From a bacterium (GTDB taxonomy: Bacteria > UBA8248): a stretch of 64,000 nucleotides of DNA. Location of the stretch: contig OY843592.1 in NCBI GenBank assembly GCA_963692865.2, forward strand, positions 224,001 through 288,000, written 5' to 3'. Positions within the stretch are counted from its first letter, which is position 1. The number at the start of each line of letters is the position of its first letter. Positions 41,615 through 50,314 of this stretch are shown piece after piece. Below the pieces are notes generated by a model, which worked only from the letters and a program-made list of their open reading frames with translations, was not told the origin of the DNA and did no database searches. Made by a program: the position numbers and the translations under genes.

Positions 41615-42475
41615 ATGTCGCATTCCAAGGTCGTCGAACTGGCGGAGGGAAAGGTCTACGCCCTCCACAACACTTTTCCCTTGGACGGGCGGATCAGCGC
41701 ATACCCCATCAGCGCGCGCGGGCACAGCGTCTCGAACTGCTATCTTTTGAAAGAAGACGCAGGAGCGCTGCTGCTCGACACGGGCTACGCCGCCCATGAA
41801 ACCGAAATCCTGGCGCAACTCGCATCCATCCTCGAGCCCGACACGCCCCTGACGATGCTCCCGCTGCGCATCAACGAATTCATGTCGGTGGGCAACGCCA
41901 TGGCGGTCGCCAAGCGCTTCAACGTGGCGGAGTGCCTCGCGCCCGTGCCGGAGATCAACGAGTGGCTCGAGTTCGAAGCGCTGGAGCCCGGCGGCGGCAA
42001 CGGCAATCCCGTCCTTCCCACGACGATACTGAAGCCCCTGCATCCCGTTGAAATCGGCGATAGACGTATCGAGGTCATGAACGCGCCGATCCGCCTCATC
42101 AGCACCCGCTGGATTTACGACCCTGCCACGCGCACCCTGTTCACCTCGGACATGTTCAGCCACCTCTGGGCGGAAACGGCGGAAGGCCCCTGGATTCTGG
42201 ATGAGGACGAGGTGACGACGACGGCCTTCGTCCGCTCGTTCCTGCTGAACACGCGCTACTGGTGGCTAGAGGGCGCGCGGACGGACGCCATCCGCAAGGG
42301 TATCGCCGAAGTTTTCGAGCGCTACGAGATCGAGACCATCGCGCCGGGATACGGCGCCGTCCTGCGCGGGCGTCACCTTGTCGAGCGGCAATTCGCCGTG
42401 CTGGATGAGGTTCTGGCGGGTCTCGACCGGGGCGTCGTCAAGCCGGGCTACGTCGCGCTGGGTCTGGAGAGATAG
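41615..42475 (+). CDS. Metallo-beta-lactamase-fold (FprA/ODP-like) protein, degenerate
   Basis: SNCYLL...LLLDTG, TLFTSDMF, IAPGYG; the HxHxDH site is replaced by LRINEFMS. Confidence 0.7.
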   Translation: MSHSKVVELAEGKVYALHNTFPLDGRISAYPISARGHSVSNCYLLKEDAGALLLDTGYAAHETEILAQLASILEPDTPLTMLPLRINEFMSVGNAMAVAKRFNVAECLAPVPEINEWLEFEALEPGGGNGNPVLPTTILKPLHPVEIGDRRIEVMNAPIRLISTRWIYDPATRTLFTSDMFSHLWAETAEGPWILDEDEVTTTAFVRSFLLNTRYWWLEGARTDAIRKGIAEVFERYEIETIAPGYGAVLRGRHLVERQFAVLDEVLAGLDRGVVKPGYVALGLER

Positions 42476-42483
42476 GAGCGCGC

Positions 42484-43245
42484 ATGAGCCGGCCCCTGCC
42501 CCGAGAAATATCGCCCGGCGTATTCTGGCTCGGCGACTGCCTCGTGCAGCACTCACAGGGCAAAATCTACCACTCCTACAACGCGGCCTTCCTCGTCATC
42601 GGCTCGGAATCCTCCATGCTCGTGGAGACGGGGCACCCCAAGGATTTCCCCGTCATCGAGCGCCAGATGAGGGACATCCTCGCCCGCGGCGGAGGCCCGC
42701 TCAGGCACCTGTTCCTGACCCATCAGGAAACGCCCCACTCGGGCGGGCTGGGCCGCGTGCTCGACAGATACCCCGACCTCACCATCCACGGAGACATGTG
42801 CGACTACCATCTCGCGTTCCCCCAGCACGAAGGCCGCTTCAAGGAGATGCGCGTGGGAGAGGCCATCGATCTGGGCGACACCCAATTCATGGCCGTGGAG
42901 CCCGTGATCAGGGACTTGCGGAGTTCTCTCTGGGGGTTCGAGACCAAAGGACGCGTGCTGTTCCCCGGTGACGGTTTCGCCTACAGCCACTACCATACGG
43001 ACGGCCACTGCGGGATGTTCGCCGAAGAGGCCGCATCGCTCGATCTGGTCGACGCACTGGGGGTTTTCGCCGAACGCGCCCTGTACTGGACCACCTTCAC
43101 CGACATGAACGTCTACGCCGACAAGCTCGAAGAGCTGATGGACGAACTTGGCGTCCGCGTCGTCGCGCCGACGCACGGCCTCCCGATACGGGACATCGCG
43201 CGCACCATGCCCAAGGTGCGGGAAGGCCTCATCCGGGGCGATTGA
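42484..43245 (+). CDS. Metallo-beta-lactamase-fold (FprA/ODP-like) protein
   Basis: YNAAFLV...LVETG, THQETPHSGG, LFPGDGF, APTHG. Confidence 0.75.
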   Translation: MSRPLPREISPGVFWLGDCLVQHSQGKIYHSYNAAFLVIGSESSMLVETGHPKDFPVIERQMRDILARGGGPLRHLFLTHQETPHSGGLGRVLDRYPDLTIHGDMCDYHLAFPQHEGRFKEMRVGEAIDLGDTQFMAVEPVIRDLRSSLWGFETKGRVLFPGDGFAYSHYHTDGHCGMFAEEAASLDLVDALGVFAERALYWTTFTDMNVYADKLEELMDELGVRVVAPTHGLPIRDIARTMPKVREGLIRGD

Positions 43246-43390: not shown

Positions 43391-43789
43391 TTAGACGTCC
43401 TCCACAAGTTCCCACAGCGTGCCCATGGTGCTCTTGGGCTTGATGAAGGCGATGAGGTGGCCGCCGAAGCCGGGTCTTGATTTCTCGTCAATCAACTCGA
43501 AGCCTTGCGCCTTCATGTCGGCCAGCACGCCGTCGATGTTCTTCACGTCGAAGGCCACATGGTGGAGACCCTCGCCGCGCTCCTCGATGAATTTGGCGAG
43601 GGGCGTGTCTTGCCGGATGGGCGAGATGGGCTCGATGAGGTCGCCGCCCAGGTCCAGCATGGCCAGATCGGTCGCGCCGTCGGCGGAAGTCTCGCGCGCC
43701 AACAGCTTCGCGCCCATGCCCTCGTAAAGGGCGATGGCGGCGTCCATGTCCTTCACCGCGACGCCGATGTGATGAAATTTGTTGAACAT
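43391..43789 (-). CDS. VOC-family protein (methylmalonyl-CoA epimerase-like)
   Basis: HHIGVAVKD, GEGLHHVAFDV, FIKPKSTMGTLWELVE. Confidence 0.85.
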   Translation of the reverse strand: MFNKFHHIGVAVKDMDAAIALYEGMGAKLLARETSADGATDLAMLDLGGDLIEPISPIRQDTPLAKFIEERGEGLHHVAFDVKNIDGVLADMKAQGFELIDEKSRPGFGGHLIAFIKPKSTMGTLWELVEDV

Positions 43790-43999
43790 CTCCGTATTCC
43801 TCCCGGCCGGAAGCGGCGGCGGGGCGTCTCCCATCGCCGCATCGGCCATTCAAAGATTTAATGACAATCTGTTTAACAGGCTTGCCGGGATTCCACAATC
43901 GAACCCGCTGCGAAACTATACTTGGCGAAGCGTTTGCCGTATCCTTCGCGCATCGGCGAAATCATACGAATCGCATATACACCCATAAGGAGAACATCC

Positions 44000-44563
44000 A
44001 TGCAAGAAGGCCCCATCGACGGACACGCCACCTCCACCGTGCCGGGCGAGCGCGTCATCGACAAGCCCGAACTCCCCTCCGGGGGGCTTTACACCGACAA
44101 CACCGTCCACACGGAGATGCACGAGGGCTCCCTGCAACTCAAACGCGGCACAGCCGGAAAATTCGAGATATTCTGCGACGAGGGCGCGAACATCGGCGGC
44201 ACGGCGCAATACCCCACGCCGATGGCCTATCTCGCCATGGCGACGGGCTTCTGACTGCTCACCCAGGTGTCGCGGTACGCGCACATGATGAAAATGGAGA
44301 TCAAGGGAGCGAGCGTCTCGGTGCGGTTCCGGAAACTGCTGGGCGGCTCGGTGCTCAAGGGCACCGTGTTCAACAAGTGGGAGGCCGTGGACACGCACCT
44401 GAAAGTCGAATCGGACGAACCGGCCGACAGGCTCGCCCACCTCATCAGGAACGCCAAGAACGGCTGTTTCGCCGAGGCCCTGATCACGGAACCCGTGCCG
44501 CTCCACTCCACCGTGGAGGTGAACGGCGAGCCGTTCCGGATAGAGGGCGTGACGGCGGACTGA
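44000..44563 (+). CDS. OsmC/Ohr-like selenoprotein candidate (Sec at TGA 44252-44254)
   Basis: DEG...GG...PTPMAYLAMATGF-TGA-LLTQVSRYA is in frame with ...AKNGCFAEAL. The TGA is at the first catalytic Cys of OsmC and the second Cys is present. RBS AAGGAG. Confidence 0.88.
44267..44284 (+). promoter_or_regulatory. Candidate bacterial SECIS hairpin
   Basis: GTG-T-CGCG-GTA-CGCG-CAC: stem starts 12 nt after the UGA, with a 5' bulged U and a GU-starting loop, resembling the E. coli fdhF SECIS architecture. Confidence 0.7.
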
Positions 44564-44584
44564 CACCCATACATGGAGTTTATC

Positions 44585-45046
44585 ATGGAATACTTCAACG
44601 CATCGCCCGGCATCGCCTTCGGCTCGCAGCCCGAGCCCGCCGACCTCGAAGCCCTCGCCGCCAGGGGGGTCAGTACCATCATCAACACGCGCTTTCCCGA
44701 GGAAGACCAGGGCGACCTCCCCCCCGAGCGCGCGAAGGCCCAGGCCGAGGCGCTGGGGATGCGCTACGTGAACGTCCCCGTCTCGCCCGTCGAGTTCAGC
44801 CCCGCCTCGCTGGCCGAGGTGAGCCGCGCCCTCACCGACGCCAGGGCCCACGGCCCCGCCTTCGTCCACTGAAAGGCCACGGGGCGGGCCGGGATTTGCT
44901 CGCTGAACCATCTGGCGGATGAGAACGGCTGGACGGCGCGGGAGATGGAGGAGGCCGCAGACGCCACCGGCTTTAATTGGCGCGAGGCGCCTCTCGCGCC
45001 CAAGTACCGCGAGTTCTTCGCGCGCAGGCCCGAGGGGTCGTCGTAA
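44585..45046 (+). CDS. DUF442/Blh-like sulfurtransferase or PTP-fold selenoprotein candidate (Sec at TGA 44870-44872)
   Basis: GSQP...GVSTIINTR..EE...GMRYVNVPV...PAFVH-TGA-KATGRAG continues 57 more codons to TAA 45044-45046. The TGA is at the Cys of the HC-x4-R loop. Alternative start at 44573. Confidence 0.82.
44884..44903 (+). promoter_or_regulatory. Candidate bacterial SECIS hairpin
   Basis: GCGGGC-CGGGATTT-GCTCGC stem beginning 11 nt after the UGA. Confidence 0.5.
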
Positions 45047-45213
45047 ACCCTCAAGCTGCGGCCCGATGCGCGCCGCGCGCAAATGCGGGCAATTGCGGGG
45101 AAATGCCGAGGCGGCGAAAAACTTTTTTTTGCCGTAAACTTGAGTCCGGCGCGTTCATATTTATAGCATAACCAGCGATATTACAATCATTTACGGGAAA
45201 TATTCCTTTCATC

Positions 45214-45263
45214 AATTTATCGAAAAACGTCGTGAATTTATCCGAATTTATACAATTTTTCAG
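45214..45263 (+). repeat. AT-rich dispersed repeat core, copy B
   Basis: 49/50 identity with 32966-33015. Confidence 0.85.
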
Positions 45264-46284
45264 TAATTCCGAATCTTGCCCGACCGGGGAAGGAGCGGCT
45301 GCGCTTCGCCGGTCGGGCAGTGAACAATCGCGCCGCCCCATACGAATCGCCGCATCCATTTTCTCCCCTCCTCTCATCGCCGAGAACAGCAATTCCTCGC
45401 TCCCCGCTCGAAATTGACGTTCGCGCGCGGGATTATCGCCCGCTACGCAGAAAACCCGACGACGGCAATTGCGGGGAAATGCGGCGTCAGCCGGATTTTG
45501 CGGGGATGGCCCACGGGGTTCTTGAAAAAGCCTCCCTGAAAAGGGGCGTTGGAGGTTGAACCCGACCGAGAAGAGAGGGTTCACGGCAAGGGGAGGTAAA
45601 AGCGATGCGCCCGGCGTGGGGTTTTTCGACAGCCCGGACACGCGGCCCATGGCCGGGAGGCGAAAACAGGCGGGGCCGCAAGGAGCGATTGCCCGCGCGC
45701 GTGGCTTCGACCGTCATGCCGGAACCCTCTCATCCGGCATCCCGTAGGGGCGGTTCGCGAACCGCCCCGCTTCCCGAGTGGTGAAAAATCCCGGTTTTAA
45801 GGCGAAATATCCGCGGCGTATCGTGGGACAGGCGAGTGTTGGGGTGGAAATGAACGCCTTGTTCGCCGTCGACGGGGGGAGGACGACAGCGATTTGAGGG
45901 GGGGCGTTCGGTGGAAATTTTACTTTTCCCCGATTGATATTTTCGCTTTATTGTCGTATCATGTCTTTATGGCTGCAGAGATGAAAAGAAGAAGCGGCGA
46001 GTTGCGCACAAGGGAATGCGTTTCGTCATAGCGCTTTTCCGATGCGGCTGGAGTCCTCAGCGAAACGATGACGGGAAAGGTTGTCTTCGGAAAATGGCGT
46101 GGCGGCGGTTTGGCATAGTGAAGAAGTGGATTTTTGGTGATTCGTTTGACTCCCTTATATCCTTGAGACATCTTTTGGTTTGTTATTTCCTGGAAAGCCC
46201 GCCCGAAATTTTCACCCGAAGGACAGTCGCGCATCCGGTATTTTCCACCCGTCGCACGGTCGGCGAACGACTGCGGAATACGGC

Positions 46285-47280
46285 ATGGTGATCGGGCAAA
46301 CCACGGTCTTCAAACCGCGAATCGAAACGTATTGCGTCGAGACGGGGCAATTCGAATTGGGGTTCGAGACCAGAAGACAGGGGTTCCTGGCTTCGCTCCG
46401 CAGTTCGGGAAAGCTCGATTACAAGCGCTACCTCGGTTCCCCGCTTCGCTACGCGGGAGGCAAGAGCCTCGCCGTCGGGCACGTCGTCGAGCGCATACCG
46501 GACAACTTGGACCGCATGGTGTCTCCGTTCATCGGCGGCGGATCGGTGGAGATCGCCTGCGCCAACGAACTGGGAATTCAGGTGCAGGGTTACGACGTAT
46601 TCGATATCCTCACGAACTACTGGAAGGTTCAACTGCAGAGCCCCGTCGAGTTGGCCGAGCGCATCTCGAAGTGGAAGCCCACGAAGGCCGCTTACGCTCA
46701 GGTGAAGGAACGTCTGAAAGCGCACTGGAAGGCGGAGAAACGCATCGCCGATCCCCTGGAACTGGCGGCTCGTTATTGGTTCAATCACAATCTGAGTTAC
46801 GGACCGGGTTTTCTAGGTTGGATGTCCAAGATTTATGAGGAACCCGATCGTTTTGAGCGCCTGCTCGACAAGGCGCGGGACTTCAGGTGTCCGGACATGC
46901 GGGTGGCGCATGGATCATTCGAAGCGACCATACCGCGGCATCGGCGAGATTTTCTGTATTGCGATCCGCCTTATTACCTGGACGGCGACAGTAAAATGTT
47001 CCGGGGCATTTACCCTCAAAGGAATTTCCCCGTCCATCATAAGGGCTTCGATCACGAGCGTCTCAGGGACTTGTTGTATGAACATGAGGGGGGATTCATT
47101 CTTTCCTATAACGACTGCAAGGCGATCCGGGAATGGTACGCCGATTTCCGCATTGTCGAAGTAGAGTGGCAGTATACGCTGGGCCAAGGCGAAACGCGGA
47201 TCGGCAAGAACCGGATCGAGAACGGAACGAAAAATCACGTGAAGGCGTCGCACGAACTTTTAATCGTGCAAGGAATTTGA
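46285..47280 (+). CDS. Dam-like (D12 class) DNA adenine methyltransferase
   Basis: SPLRYAGGKS, SPFIGGGSV, YCDPPY. Confidence 0.9.
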   Translation: MVIGQTTVFKPRIETYCVETGQFELGFETRRQGFLASLRSSGKLDYKRYLGSPLRYAGGKSLAVGHVVERIPDNLDRMVSPFIGGGSVEIACANELGIQVQGYDVFDILTNYWKVQLQSPVELAERISKWKPTKAAYAQVKERLKAHWKAEKRIADPLELAARYWFNHNLSYGPGFLGWMSKIYEEPDRFERLLDKARDFRCPDMRVAHGSFEATIPRHRRDFLYCDPPYYLDGDSKMFRGIYPQRNFPVHHKGFDHERLRDLLYEHEGGFILSYNDCKAIREWYADFRIVEVEWQYTLGQGETRIGKNRIENGTKNHVKASHELLIVQGI

Positions 47281-47281
47281 A

Positions 47282-48067
47282 GTGGCGCGAAGGCGCGCGA
47301 TGACTTCCGATCACGCCGGCGAAGTGAAAATAGCCGGGCATTTGAATGAGTACGACTTCGCCGATTTGATCGGGGGAGAAGTCAATCTCGGAACGCACAC
47401 GGACAAGAAAGATGTGATCGATGGACAGCATCGCTCCCATTCCGTGAAAGCGGGAACGTGGTGGCAAGTATTTCTCTACGGCAGGGATCGCCTGGAAACG
47501 AACACCATTTTCCAGGGATTGGGCGAAGTCGCCAACATCATGATCGCGCGCATCGACGCCTATCCGTCAAGCTATGCCGACTACCAACGCGATAAGACAG
47601 AGGCGAAGAGAAAACTGCAACCGCGCATGCGGAGACTTTTGGCCGAACTTGAAAAACCGAACATATTCAGCGCATTTCTCGACAAGCCGCTCTTCGATGG
47701 CGGAAATGCGGAATACCTGAGCATTTTCCTCGGCCCTGCGAAAACGGACAAAAAGAACAAAACCTTTCATGTATTCCACAAAGATGCAGTCGTGGCCGCG
47801 CTTGCGGCGGACGTAACGCTACGCAACTCCAAAGCCAGAAATGCGAAGCAGATGGACGATCAGAAAGTTACTTTCCGGTCTGCGCTTCATCGCAAGAATA
47901 TCGGAGAGATCGAGGATCGCCACGACAGCAAAGGGCACTACAGGGAGATGAAATTCCGTCTCAACGCCAGGCTGGTTTTTGAGATTCTAACAAACGGCAT
48001 TACGGACACGAAACTGGCGAGACCTCAGGTGATCACCTACGGGAGAGCTGCGCGGTTGTTCAAATGA
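47282..48067 (+). CDS. Putative type II restriction endonuclease
   Basis: Begins 1 nt after the MTase stop; GH.NE...KKDVID...SVK PD-(D/E)XK-like motif. Confidence 0.6.
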   Translation: MARRRAMTSDHAGEVKIAGHLNEYDFADLIGGEVNLGTHTDKKDVIDGQHRSHSVKAGTWWQVFLYGRDRLETNTIFQGLGEVANIMIARIDAYPSSYADYQRDKTEAKRKLQPRMRRLLAELEKPNIFSAFLDKPLFDGGNAEYLSIFLGPAKTDKKNKTFHVFHKDAVVAALAADVTLRNSKARNAKQMDDQKVTFRSALHRKNIGEIEDRHDSKGHYREMKFRLNARLVFEILTNGITDTKLARPQVITYGRAARLFK

Positions 48068-48631
48068 GGCATCCCGTGAAAAAGCGCGCCTCCTCCCCAT
48101 AGCCCACGGACTGGCAGCCGGGTTAGCCAAACCGGAGAAGAAAGTCCGCAACAATGCCGCGACGGAGAACCTTGCGAGTCAGGCGCTCTCCAGCGCGTCC
48201 GAGATGCGCTCGCAGAAGACGGCGTCGCCGGGGAACTAGAATCACTGGTTGGTGCGTTGCTGAAAACCGCCGAGGTCAATCCCTGACCGCCTCCTCCTCC
48301 CCGGTCTTCCAGACGCCCCTCTCCCGGAAAGCGGGGATGGTCCGGCGACGGCTGAGAAGATCAACCGCCTTCGTCCCGTTCACGTTGATTCGTCGATTTT
48401 ACGTGAACGAACCACGTAAAACGCTCTTCACTCACCCCTGATCGAACAAGCCAAGTGAATGAATTTTGCGGCTCGATTCCGGCATGCGCCGGAATGACGG
48501 CGCTGCGGTTCGCTTCCGACCGGGAGGGCGCATTCGACAGTTTCCTTGACACTCACCTTGCGCGTCGCTAGGTTGTCCCGGATTATGTCCAGCCAGCCAC
48601 GACCATCATCGCCACCAGCCTGGAGGGAGCC

Positions 48632-50314
48632 ATGGCCATCGCATCGGACGTAGAGATCGCACAGGGGGCGAAGCTCCGGCCCATCGTCGAAGTCGCCGAA
48701 GAACTGGGACTCGGGGCGGAGGAGATAGAACTCTACGGCGCGCACAAGGCCAAGGTCGAACTCGGCGCGCTCGCGCGGCGCGAGGGGGCGCCGGACGGAA
48801 AACTCATCCTCGTCACCGCCATGACGCCCACCCCGCTGGGCGAGGGCAAGACGCTCACCACGGTGGGCCTCGGCCAGGCGCTCGCGCGGCTGGGCAAAAA
48901 GAGCGTCATCTGCGTACGCGAACCCTCGCTCGGCCCCGTGTTCGGCATCAAGGGGGGCGCGGCGGGCGGCGGCATGTCGCAGGTGCTGCCGATGGAGGAC
49001 ATCAACCTGCACTTCACGGGCGACATCCACGCGGTCACCTCCGCCCACAACCTGCTGTCCGCCCTCCTCGACGCGCACGTGTTCCACGGCAACGAACTCG
49101 GGCTGGACGTGAACCGCGTCACCTGGAAGCGGGTGCTGGACATGAACGACCGCGCGCTGCGCCACGTCCTCGTGGGTCTGGGCGGCAGGACGCACGGCGT
49201 GCCCAGGGAAGAGGGCTTCATGATCACGGCGGCGTCCGAGATCATGGCCGTCTTGTGCCTGGCGAGCGGCCCGGGGGACATGAAGGAGCGCATCGGGCGC
49301 ATCGTGGTCGGCTACACGCGGAAGGGCGCGCCCGTCACGGCGGGGGATCTGAACGCCTCGGGCGCGATGGCCCTGCTCCTCAAAGACGCCGTCAAGCCCA
49401 ATCTCGTGCAGACGCTGGAGGGCTCTCCCGCCTTCGTCCACGGCGGGCCGTTCGGCAACATCGCCCACGGGACGAACTCCACCATCGCGGACAGGCTCGC
49501 GCTCAAGCTCGCCGACGTGATGGTCGTGGAGGCGGGCTTCGGCTCCGACCTGGGGGCGGAGAAATTCTTCGACATCACCGCGCGGACGGCGGGGCTGAAC
49601 GTGGACGCGGTGGTGCTCGTCGCCACCGTCCGCGCGCTCAAGCTCCACGGCGGCGTCCCCTTCGACAAGGAGGCCCTGGCGGAGGAGAACGCGGACGCCG
49701 TAACGGAAGGCTTCTCGAACCTGCGCACCCACGTCGAGAACATGAAAGGCTTCGGCGCGCCCGTCGTCGTGGCCGTGAACCGCTTCGCCTCGGACACGGA
49801 CGCGGAGGTCGCGCGCGTGAAAGAGCTTTGCGTCGAGGCGGGAGCGCCCTGCTGCGCGCACGAGCTTCACGGCAAGGGCGGCGAGGGCGGCCTCGAACTC
49901 GCCGAGACGGCGTACGGGCTCGCCGCCGCGAACGACGCGCCCTACGCGCCGCTCTATCCCCTCGACATACCGCTCAAGGAAAAAATCGAGACCATCGCGA
50001 AGCGCATCTACCGCGCGGACGGCGTCGCCTTCGAGCCGGCCGCCGCGCGCAGCCTGCGCTCCTTGACGCGGCTGGGCTACGGGGAGTTGCCCGTCTGCAT
50101 GGCGAAGACGCAGGCCTCCTTGTCGGACGACCCCAGGAAGCTGGGCGGGCCGCGCGGCTTCACGGTGAACGTGCGCGAGGTCTACGTCTCGGCGGGGGCG
50201 GGGTTCGTGGTCGCCATCGCGGGGAGCATCATGCAGATGCCCGGCCTCGCCAAGACGCCCGCCGCCGCGGGGATGGACGTCACCGCCGACGGCAGGATCA
50301 CGGGGCTGTTTTAG
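48632..50314 (+). CDS. fhs: Formate--tetrahydrofolate ligase
   Basis: TPTPLGEGKT, IKGGAAGGG, HGGPFGNIAHG, EAGFGSDLG, CMAKTQ. Confidence 0.97.
   Translation: MAIASDVEIAQGAKLRPIVEVAEELGLGAEEIELYGAHKAKVELGALARREGAPDGKLILVTAMTPTPLGEGKTLTTVGLGQALARLGKKSVICVREPSLGPVFGIKGGAAGGGMSQVLPMEDINLHFTGDIHAVTSAHNLLSALLDAHVFHGNELGLDVNRVTWKRVLDMNDRALRHVLVGLGGRTHGVPREEGFMITAASEIMAVLCLASGPGDMKERIGRIVVGYTRKGAPVTAGDLNASGAMALLLKDAVKPNLVQTLEGSPAFVHGGPFGNIAHGTNSTIADRLALKLADVMVVEAGFGSDLGAEKFFDITARTAGLNVDAVVLVATVRALKLHGGVPFDKEALAEENADAVTEGFSNLRTHVENMKGFGAPVVVAVNRFASDTDAEVARVKELCVEAGAPCCAHELHGKGGEGGLELAETAYGLAAANDAPYAPLYPLDIPLKEKIETIAKRIYRADGVAFEPAAARSLRSLTRLGYGELPVCMAKTQASLSDDPRKLGGPRGFTVNVREVYVSAGAGFVVAIAGSIMQMPGLAKTPAAAGMDVTADGRITGLF

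Follow-up and report, generated by a model that had tools for sequence, protein, structure and literature searches.

A predicted selenocysteine form of DUF442 encoded next to an OsmC-related selenoprotein gene in a UBA8248 bacterium

We examined two adjacent genes in a 64,000-nucleotide (nt) stretch of bacterial DNA, here called the window (contig OY843592.1 of assembly GCA_963692865.2, positions 224,001 to 288,000, phylum UBA8248 in GTDB), each of which is interrupted by a single in-frame TGA. Gene 1 encodes an OsmC-related protein and gene 2 a protein related to the DUF442 family. The comparative evidence confirms, at the level of sequence, that both are genuine selenoprotein genes in which the TGA would be read as selenocysteine (Sec, or U). 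With a probability of about 0.78, we read the locus as two genuine Sec genes that lie side by side, encode two separate enzymes and are probably co-transcribed in the window genome, and not as an established two-part system. The initial annotation of this DNA had described two co-oriented genes 21 bp apart, with one in-frame TGA each at the catalytic cysteine column, and had assigned them to OsmC-like and DUF442-like families. Coordinates and alignments agree with this layout, and Pfam, NCBIfam and fold matches support both assignments.

Decoding of the in-frame TGAs

The window genome (4.15 Mb in 8 contigs, 97.4% complete, 6.7% contamination) encodes the complete Sec machinery. SelB scores 391.7 bits (cut-off 242) and tRNA-Sec 76.7 bits (cut-off 47), and SelA (567.2 bits) and SelD (334.6 bits) are both above their curated cut-offs. 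The selB and selA genes are located less than 1 kb apart (G000:C1:1271291-1275499, where G000 is the window genome), and the SelD gene (G000:C1:65915-66877) is itself a selenoprotein gene with one TGA. tRNA-Sec gave two equal-scoring matches (C1:1207504-1207596 and C4:29719-29811), either a true duplication or, given the 6.7% contamination, assembly redundancy.

Both TGAs (gene 1, codon 85; gene 2, codon 96) are kept in all 21 paired loci of the genus, while the terminal stop of gene 1 varies among 20 loci (TAA in 14, TGA in 3 and TAG in 3). The codon-85 TGA is also present in each of the 15 family members in a wider alignment (A3). Using a profile of gene 2 and its relatives (E <=1e-10), we surveyed 51 genomes of the phylum and obtained 59 DUF442 matches in 35 of them. 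All 57 matches of near-full length carry the TGA; the remaining two, a TAA-bearing fragment and a C-terminal piece at a contig end, were set aside. One paralogue located next to a transglutaminase gene (G010:C5:285646-286089, locus L053) has a second TGA where the Trp codon is otherwise invariant, together with a C-to-T change in its hairpin, probably through decay of the copy or a sequencing error.

Outside the phylum, the column of Sec96 holds Cys in 8 of 8 loci, which come from Abditibacterium, Phycisphaeraceae (two), Planctomycetales, Lysobacteraceae, Aquimonas, Bradymonadales and Acidobacteria. The initial annotation had suggested, as a check, looking for conservation of the UGAs in related genomes and for their alternation with Cys in orthologues, and this is the pattern observed, with the alternation seen for gene 2. 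When 1.84 billion protein representatives were searched with gene 2, 5749 matches were returned at E <=0.001 and 763 at E <=1e-10. The best 150 matches are mostly about 150 residues long, and all 16 full-length sequences inspected among them have Cys at the Sec column. A few of these 150 are 94-95 residues long and end just ahead of that column, with representatives P0062, P0110 and P0179 terminating at or directly past the preceding '...VH'. Similarly, 46 of 49 database homologues of gene 2 are 95-residue products that stop just ahead of the TGA, which bears out the earlier statement that such genes are invisible to code-11 gene callers. A metagenome scan with P0110 for Sec forms outside the phylum gave only distant Cys forms. 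P0032, a 162-aa metagenomic sequence, is the sole Cys form inside the Sec family and keeps the Cys located nine residues downstream. It is nested among Sec forms in the tree, on a long branch and with weak support (95/72), and hints at a possible Sec-to-Cys reversal.

The ratio of nonsynonymous to synonymous substitution rates (dN/dS) 3' of the TGAs and hairpins is 0.05-0.30, compared with 0.09-0.31 upstream (seven pairwise comparisons). The sequence 3' of the TGAs is under purifying selection, and coding conservation extends past both TGAs; its lack there would have counted against the initial annotation. These data make it very improbable that the TGAs are true stops and that the genes are pseudogenes or yield truncated products of 84 and 95 residues. 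Truncation would fit the 95-residue products in public protein sets and the unremarkable single-sequence hairpin energies described below, but it leaves unexplained why TGA occupies the exact catalytic column in all copies when the real stop of gene 1 varies, why selection acts on the downstream part, why the part of gene 2 that lies 3' of its TGA encodes the active-site Arg, the second Cys and the remainder of the fold, and why the genome has the full Sec machinery. Scarcely credible is a genome-wide reassignment of TGA to Trp or Gly (NCBI tables 4 or 25). The open frames alone would be consistent with it, but TGA ends gene 1 here and in two relatives where 14 others have TAA, the in-frame TGAs align with Cys and never with Trp or Gly, and TGA read-through joins unrelated frames throughout the region.

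Bacterial selenocysteine insertion sequence (SECIS) elements have a stem that begins about 10-12 nt past the UGA and a G in the apical loop. A hairpin follows each of the two UGAs, starting 12 nt past that of gene 1 and 10 nt past that of gene 2, so that the distance of 11-12 nt given in the initial annotation is about right. Across 15 family members of gene 1, the hairpin core forms a helix of 6 pairs (alignment columns 18-23 with 27-32), 2 of which show compensatory changes, and the covariation score of this helix is 0.143 compared with 0.050 in shuffles, a level reached by 2 of 500 shuffles. Codons 90-95 of gene 1 are invariant in 21 sequences, and in the same set the codons of invariant residues are fixed to a single codon at 8 of 11 positions inside the hairpin versus 29 of 113 outside.

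For gene 2, the 7-pair stem (44883-44889 with 44898-44904) is part of the RNAalifold consensus of 18 sequences (columns 14-20 with 29-35), with no broken pair and with compatible one-sided changes at 2 pairs. Columns 13-35 past the UGA are near-invariant in these 18 sequences, which include paralogues only about 40% identical as proteins. Codons of invariant residues are fixed to a single codon at 6 of 8 positions inside the hairpin versus 2 of 21 outside (30 sequences; Fisher p 0.0014), a within-gene contrast and not an independent test because the sequences are kin. Both hairpins thus show suppressed synonymous variation. By single-sequence folding, the 60 nt past each TGA are no better than shuffles (z -0.80 and +0.17); such folding is useless by itself in DNA as G+C-rich as this, and the support for the hairpins is comparative. 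An Rfam scan of 43800-45200 with E up to 10 found no SECIS family, and sub-threshold matches to chrB-b, toga_FSE and asX6 were taken as chance. We propose that both UGAs would be decoded via a SelB-dependent hairpin that lies within the reading frame, 10-12 nt downstream of the UGA.

Families and proposed chemistry of the two products

Gene 1 matches the NCBIfam model NF041052, "OsmC-related (seleno)protein" (OsmC_like_Se), over profile positions 3-144 of 144 with 166.8 bits (cut-off 95, E 2.8e-49), and Pfam OsmC with 46.7 bits (cut-off 27.5). The columns of Sec85 and Cys156, which align with the first and second conserved Cys of the OsmC-like structure 3cje, are both invariant in a 15-sequence alignment (A4), and orthologues with 84-96% identity are present in 20 other genomes of the genus. 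OsmC-like selenoproteins were reportedly described earlier in the Sargasso Sea and GOS papers. Table 1 of a 2026 selenoprotein review (PMC13188914) has an entry 'OsmC-like protein' (PF02566) with the motif UxxT, which the U-L-L-T of gene 1 matches. The initial annotation had not recognized the pair as a described system, and for gene 1 this does not stand. Judged by its sequence, gene 1 belongs to the known OsmC-related selenoproteins and is nothing new; the U-L-L-T motif, the second Cys and an in-frame UGA with its hairpin are all present, and we see no material difference from NF041052.

The family is much expanded in the window's lineage. The window genome holds three copies above the cut-off and a fourth with TGA (G000:C1:1713067, 1118483, 3876798; L038, L040, L044), and the family is likewise expanded in the relatives G055, G045 and G023, with up to 13 matches (12 with TGA) in one relative, including tandem pairs 28-95 nt apart. 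Proteins of the OsmC/Ohr family are hydroperoxide reductases, and the mechanism we propose for gene 1 rests on that of the family. Sec85 would replace the peroxidatic cysteine and would be oxidized by a hydroperoxide to selenenic acid; Cys156 would resolve this to a selenenyl-sulfide, which a cellular dithiol would re-reduce.

The best Pfam match of gene 2, and the sole one above its cut-off, is PF04273 (DUF442/BLH_phosphatase), with 43.9 bits (cut-off 26.1) over residues 8-102 and profile positions 7-99 of 110; other phosphatase- and protein tyrosine phosphatase (PTP)-type families are sub-threshold. Its match to the Blh model NF040641 (48.6 bits, cut-off 625) covers the N-terminal 130 profile positions only, and gene 2 contains no dioxygenase domain. 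We built an AlphaFold model of the product on 12 relatives, with a mean predicted local distance difference test (pLDDT) score of 76.9 and values below 50 for loop residues 99-102. The best PDB matches of this model are the DUF442 structures 2f46 (NMA1982) and 3gxh (from Shewanella), two structural-genomics 'putative phosphatases' (E 1.7e-7 to 5e-7, template modeling (TM) score 0.67-0.75), which are 18-21% identical to gene 2 and have Cys where gene 2 has Sec.

Classical phosphatases have a C-x5-R loop. Sec96 aligns with the P-loop Cys of both TpbA (4r0s) and 2f46, and no gap is needed to align the loop U-K-A-T-G-R with C-R-T-G-T-R of 2f46, compared with a gap of one residue for TpbA; the active-site loop H-U-x4-R is therefore of DUF442 length, one residue shorter than that of TpbA. 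Nine residues past Sec96 is a second cysteine, Cys105, which is invariant in alignment A1 and replaced by other residues in all distant Cys-form homologues compared, marking it as subfamily-specific. The Cys105 codon doubles as part of the 3' arm of the hairpin.

The closest studied relatives of gene 2 are DUF442 sulfur transferases. The DUF442 domain at the N-terminus of Blh (Xylella, Agrobacterium) and that of the Cupriavidus pinatubonensis SQR fusion share with gene 2 the Pfam family, the fold and the nucleophile-x4-Arg loop, and DUF442 domains of Blh and of an SQR are reported to have measured rhodanese activity with an essential active-site Cys (PMC5823870, PMC9163753). Gene 2 differs from them in having Sec for the catalytic Cys, in being a stand-alone protein of 153 residues and in its extra invariant Cys. 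Its nearest Cys homologues include fusions with rhodanese and metallo-beta-lactamase domains: P0056 combines a metallo-beta-lactamase, two rhodanese and a DUF442-like domain, P0055 two rhodanese domains with a DUF442-like domain, and P0144 a metallo-beta-lactamase with a DUF442-like domain. Based on the loop length, these fusions and the rhodanese activity of the studied DUF442 domains, we favor, by analogy, the view that gene 2 acts as a sulfur (or selenium) transferase via an enzyme-Se-S intermediate. In this mechanism, Sec96 in the H-U-x4-R loop would accept sulfane sulfur (or selenium) as an enzyme-Se-S(-) intermediate and pass it on to an acceptor, and the family-specific Cys105 may serve as a resolving residue for a selenenyl-sulfide. 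The proposed chemistry is analogous to that of the rhodanese-like selenoproteins (forms 1-5 in Table 1 of PMC13188914), because in these sulfur-transferase-type enzymes Sec likewise takes the place of the catalytic Cys; they have the PF00581 fold, whereas gene 2 belongs to PF04273, a different fold and family.

It is also conceivable, though we think it fairly unlikely, that gene 2, though a real selenoprotein, works as a Sec-based phosphatase or in the manner of an arsenate reductase. True phosphatases (Tk-PTP, TpbA, PFA-DSP1 and Siw14) rank just behind the DUF442 structures in the fold search, the weak PTP-type Pfam matches and a sub-threshold match to TIGR01244 point the same way, and the conserved Cys near the nucleophile resembles the second Cys of thiol-cascade arsenate reductases. 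Against this stand the U-x4-R loop of DUF442 length, the position of PF04273 as the sole Pfam match above cut-off, and the fusion of the nearest Cys homologues to rhodanese and metallo-beta-lactamase domains.

The pairing and its history

We compared the locus among the 23 genomes of the genus, including that of the window. The spacer between OsmC(U) and DUF442(U), as we denote the two Sec forms, is 21-25 nt long in 17 genomes and 205, 71 and 73 nt in three (G019, G007 and G001; loci L034-L036), which places the pair within 205 nt in 20 of 23. It is split in two others, by about 0.7 kb in G009 and by 6.8 kb with intervening transporter genes in G015, and in G017 a contig end truncates the copy of gene 2. 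The longer spacers of G019, G007 and G001 hold G+C-rich inverted repeats, possible terminators or regulatory hairpins that, if they act as such, could uncouple gene 1 and gene 2 there. Six of the wider loci are long enough to show the full gene order, dnaX(-), two metallo-beta-lactamase/ODP-like genes, a glyoxalase-fold gene(-), OsmC(U) and DUF442(U), and five of them have all of it; the two metallo-beta-lactamase genes were not found upstream in G007 (L069).

Searches of other genera revealed no OsmC(U)-DUF442(U) pairing. Three of these genera have OsmC orthologues (72-75% identity), but the contigs concerned do not carry DUF442(U) and the loci contain no DUF442 match, and none of the 8 Cys-form loci of other phyla has an OsmC-like neighbor, although this sample is small and the query weakly sensitive. 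Outside the OsmC context, DUF442(U) has a co-oriented Transglut_core2 (SirB1-like) gene upstream, with ilvD alongside, in 16 of 17 loci from 6 genera, among them a second DUF442(U) copy of the window's own genus. Only the second copy of G041 departs from this arrangement, and two of the 16 loci have an intervening gap of about 1.2 kb. In the window genome, the second DUF442(U) gene (G000:C1:2130206-2130649; L052 3001-3450) is about 39% identical to gene 2 and sits 27 nt behind the SirB1-like Transglut_core2 gene, between an acetolactate-synthase-like thiamine pyrophosphate enzyme and ilvD; arrangements like that of L052 are also present in L045-L047, L050, L056 and L123-L133. From these gene orders, the transglutaminase/ilvD setting is the more deeply conserved one for the DUF442(U) family.

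A maximum-likelihood tree of 47 sequences, rooted by midpoint only, groups the OsmC-linked copies (support 100/99) into one clade with transglutaminase-linked copies from two further genera. Because the OsmC-linked copies are nested among transglutaminase-linked ones, the OsmC linkage is derived. The pairing arose within one genus, where a copy of the transglutaminase/ilvD-linked gene came to sit behind the OsmC gene. The synteny in related genomes that the initial annotation had named as a check is thus found within the genus, and elsewhere gives way to the transglutaminase/ilvD context. As a conserved two-gene system the pair does not hold up, being limited to one genus, broken by insertions in 2 of its 23 genomes and derived in its OsmC linkage. 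The adjacency is a local, genus-level gene order that lends no support to a dedicated relay. Two co-oriented neighboring Sec genes are also found in described pairs and operons of selenoprotein genes (grdA-grdB, prdB-prdC, Prx with SelW-like, Prx-like with AhpD-like, Tso and SAO; PMC13188914 section 9), but the OsmC(U)-DUF442(U) pairing differs from them in that it is restricted to a single genus, at least two species of which can do without it.

Expression was assessed using four RNA libraries from two studies, labeled sponge or marine metagenome, with contigs matched at >=82% likeness. A contig of 2115 nt aligns to 44021-45019 at about 91% identity (85 differences, one gap) and hence derives from a relative, in which it spans gene 1, gene 2, both UGAs and the spacer. 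Shorter contigs cover portions of the locus, and paralogue contigs accumulate at the hairpin of gene 1 and nowhere else. A promoter and terminator scan around the pair gave nothing convincing and no terminator-like site between the genes. We infer that gene 1 and gene 2 are probably co-transcribed in the window genome.

The initial annotation had proposed a dedicated Sec-dependent peroxide/persulfide (or selenide) relay, in which sulfane sulfur, selenium or reducing equivalents would pass between DUF442(U) and the OsmC(U) peroxidase in one direction or the other. The arrangement of the genes is in keeping with such a relay: they are co-oriented, with a short spacer that carries its own ribosome-binding site in the 17 tightly spaced genomes and no terminator-like site, an RNA-library contig spans both in a relative, and both proteins have Sec plus a nearby conserved Cys. 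However, we consider it unlikely, because the pairing occurs in one genus only and is loosened there to 71-205 nt in three genomes, 0.7 kb in G009 and 6.8 kb in G015, because the two genes lie on separate contigs in three other genera, because a transglutaminase-like gene precedes DUF442(U) in 16 of 17 non-OsmC loci with the OsmC-linked copies nested within, and because the 8 Cys-form loci, few as they are and searched with weak sensitivity, have no OsmC-like neighbor.

Several points count against the preferred reading of two separate Sec enzymes. The compared genomes are close kin, so that conservation counts such as 21 of 21 and 57 of 57 are not independent events. No compensatory double change is seen in the gene 2 hairpin among the 18 sequences compared with RNAalifold, so its support is invariance. 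The invariant stretch of gene 2 also encodes a conserved peptide, G-R-A-G-I-C-S-L, so protein and RNA constraints are entangled there, although synonymous sites allow them to be told apart. On TIGR01244, the curated 'sulfur transferase' subfamily, gene 2 scores 44.4 bits and a DUF442(U) paralogue 47.7 bits; the cut-off is 85.85, and gene 2 is therefore filed under the Pfam superfamily only. The gene 2 fold is also found in true phosphatases. Spacers as short as 21-25 nt, present in 17 of 23 genomes, could still reflect a real functional link, and the RNA-library contig is no proof of a single transcript, with DNA carry-over as a possible source.

The locus, its neighbors and the place of the DUF442 selenoproteins

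The features of the locus are collected in Table 1. Under table 11, gene 1 and gene 2 appear as two open reading frames (ORFs) each, and the two genes share one frame by coincidence. An in-frame ATG at 44573 was rejected as the start of gene 2, because the 22-25-nt spacers of relatives shift it out of frame and public calls begin MEYF. Two long ORFs, 43916-45082 on the opposite strand and 43861-44922 in the +2 frame, match no Pfam family above cut-off and were set aside as shadow frames.

Table 1. Features of the OsmC(U)-DUF442(U) locus (window coordinates)
Feature	Position	Strand	Basis or remark
Two metallo-beta-lactamase/ODP-like genes (41615-42475, 42484-43245)	41615..43245	+	Weak Pfam Lactamase_B and ODP matches
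Divergent glyoxalase-fold, methylmalonyl-CoA-epimerase-like gene	43391..43849	-	Glyoxalase_4, 81.1 bits
Shine-Dalgarno-like AAGGAG	43987..43992	+	7 nt 5' of the gene 1 ATG; read from the sequence
Gene 1, predicted OsmC-related selenoprotein, 187 residues (187 codons), Sec85 and Cys156	44000..44563	+	NF041052, Pfam OsmC; terminal TGA at 44561-44563
UGA, predicted Sec85 (codon 85), motif G-F-U-L-L-T	44252..44254	+	Aligns with the first conserved Cys of 3cje
Gene 1 SECIS-type hairpin, stem GUG(U)CGCG / CGCGCAC, apical GUA	44267..44284	+	Family-level 6-pair helix
Cys156 codon, motif G-C-F-A-E, second conserved OsmC cysteine	44465..44467	+	Aligns with the second Cys of 3cje
Spacer between gene 1 and gene 2, 21 nt	44564..44584		
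GGAG ribosome-binding site of gene 2, inside the spacer	44575..44578	+	TGGAG or CGGAG in the spacers of 20 of 20 loci
Gene 2, DUF442/PF04273-like phosphatase-fold protein, predicted Sec96, 153 residues (153 codons)	44585..45046	+	PF04273, model, 57 TGA copies; terminal TAA
UGA, predicted Sec96 (codon 96), motif H-U-K-A-T-G-R	44870..44872	+	Aligns with the catalytic Cys of TpbA and 2f46
Gene 2 SECIS-type hairpin, 7-pair stem, loop CGGGAUUU	44883..44904	+	RNAalifold consensus, 18 sequences
Cys105 codon, nine residues past Sec96	44897..44899	+	Invariant in alignment A1

The glyoxalase-fold gene adjoins gene 1 in 7 of 7 wider loci and scores 112.7 bits on TIGR03081, just below the cut-off of 114.95. 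The metallo-beta-lactamase-fold genes, found upstream in five of the six sufficiently long loci from the genus, have weak matches to ODP and flavodiiron-type domains, and the second of them has H-Q-E-T-P-H instead of the usual metal motif. Downstream of the pair, 45047-48631 contains a D12-class N6-adenine DNA methyltransferase (46180-47280) and an ORF with no family (47282-48067). This 3.6-kb segment looks like an insertion, because in G019 the homologue of ORF 48632-50314 directly follows DUF442(U), and it may be a restriction-modification island.

We found no DUF442 (PF04273, TIGR01244) selenoprotein in the literature, part of which was covered at the level of titles, with Haft & Tolstoy 2025 outside the scope. 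The 119-family Table 1 of the 2026 review (PMC13188914) has no PF04273 entry, and its text contains none of the terms PF04273, TIGR01244, 'phosphatase' or 'tyrosine'. No DUF442 selenoprotein appears in the main texts of deep-Sep and BSepDB, although BSepDB Table S2, outside the scope, could list one, and NCBIfam release 20 has no dedicated model for it. Gene 2 is thus, by sequence-based classification, an uncatalogued Sec form of a known fold and family. We also put forward, as a distinctly speculative proposal, that the DUF442(U) proteins may be the first Sec enzymes of the phosphatase fold and may use their selenol to carry sulfane sulfur (or selenium), so as to protect or repair targets that are sensitive to oxidants. 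The gene would originally have followed a SirB1-like transglutaminase-fold gene, with that of the Fe-S enzyme dihydroxy-acid dehydratase alongside, and its secondary move to the side of a Sec peroxidase gene, seen in one genus, would reflect a single oxidative/sulfur-stress module in which OsmC(U) and DUF442(U) cooperate.

The OsmC(U)-DUF442(U) pairing itself is best regarded as a local gene-order feature, which should not spread as a new 'system' without experiments. Metagenome-assembled genomes labeled Nitrospinota/Nitrospinae that belong to GTDB phylum UBA8248 are listed among the ten most selenoprotein-rich bacteria in Table 2 of BSepDB (PMC13326102), a table built on known families only; the selenoproteome of this lineage is thus still undercounted. 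Public calls of gene 2 end at residue 95, and its active-site Arg, its conserved Cys and one third of the protein are consequently missing from databases. Gene 2 would add a selenoprotein family in the phosphatase-like DUF442 fold, for which no Sec member is listed, and the natural Sec/Cys pair that it forms with its homologues, in what may be a rhodanese-like sulfur transferase of another fold, would be a useful comparison for the benefit of selenium in persulfide chemistry.

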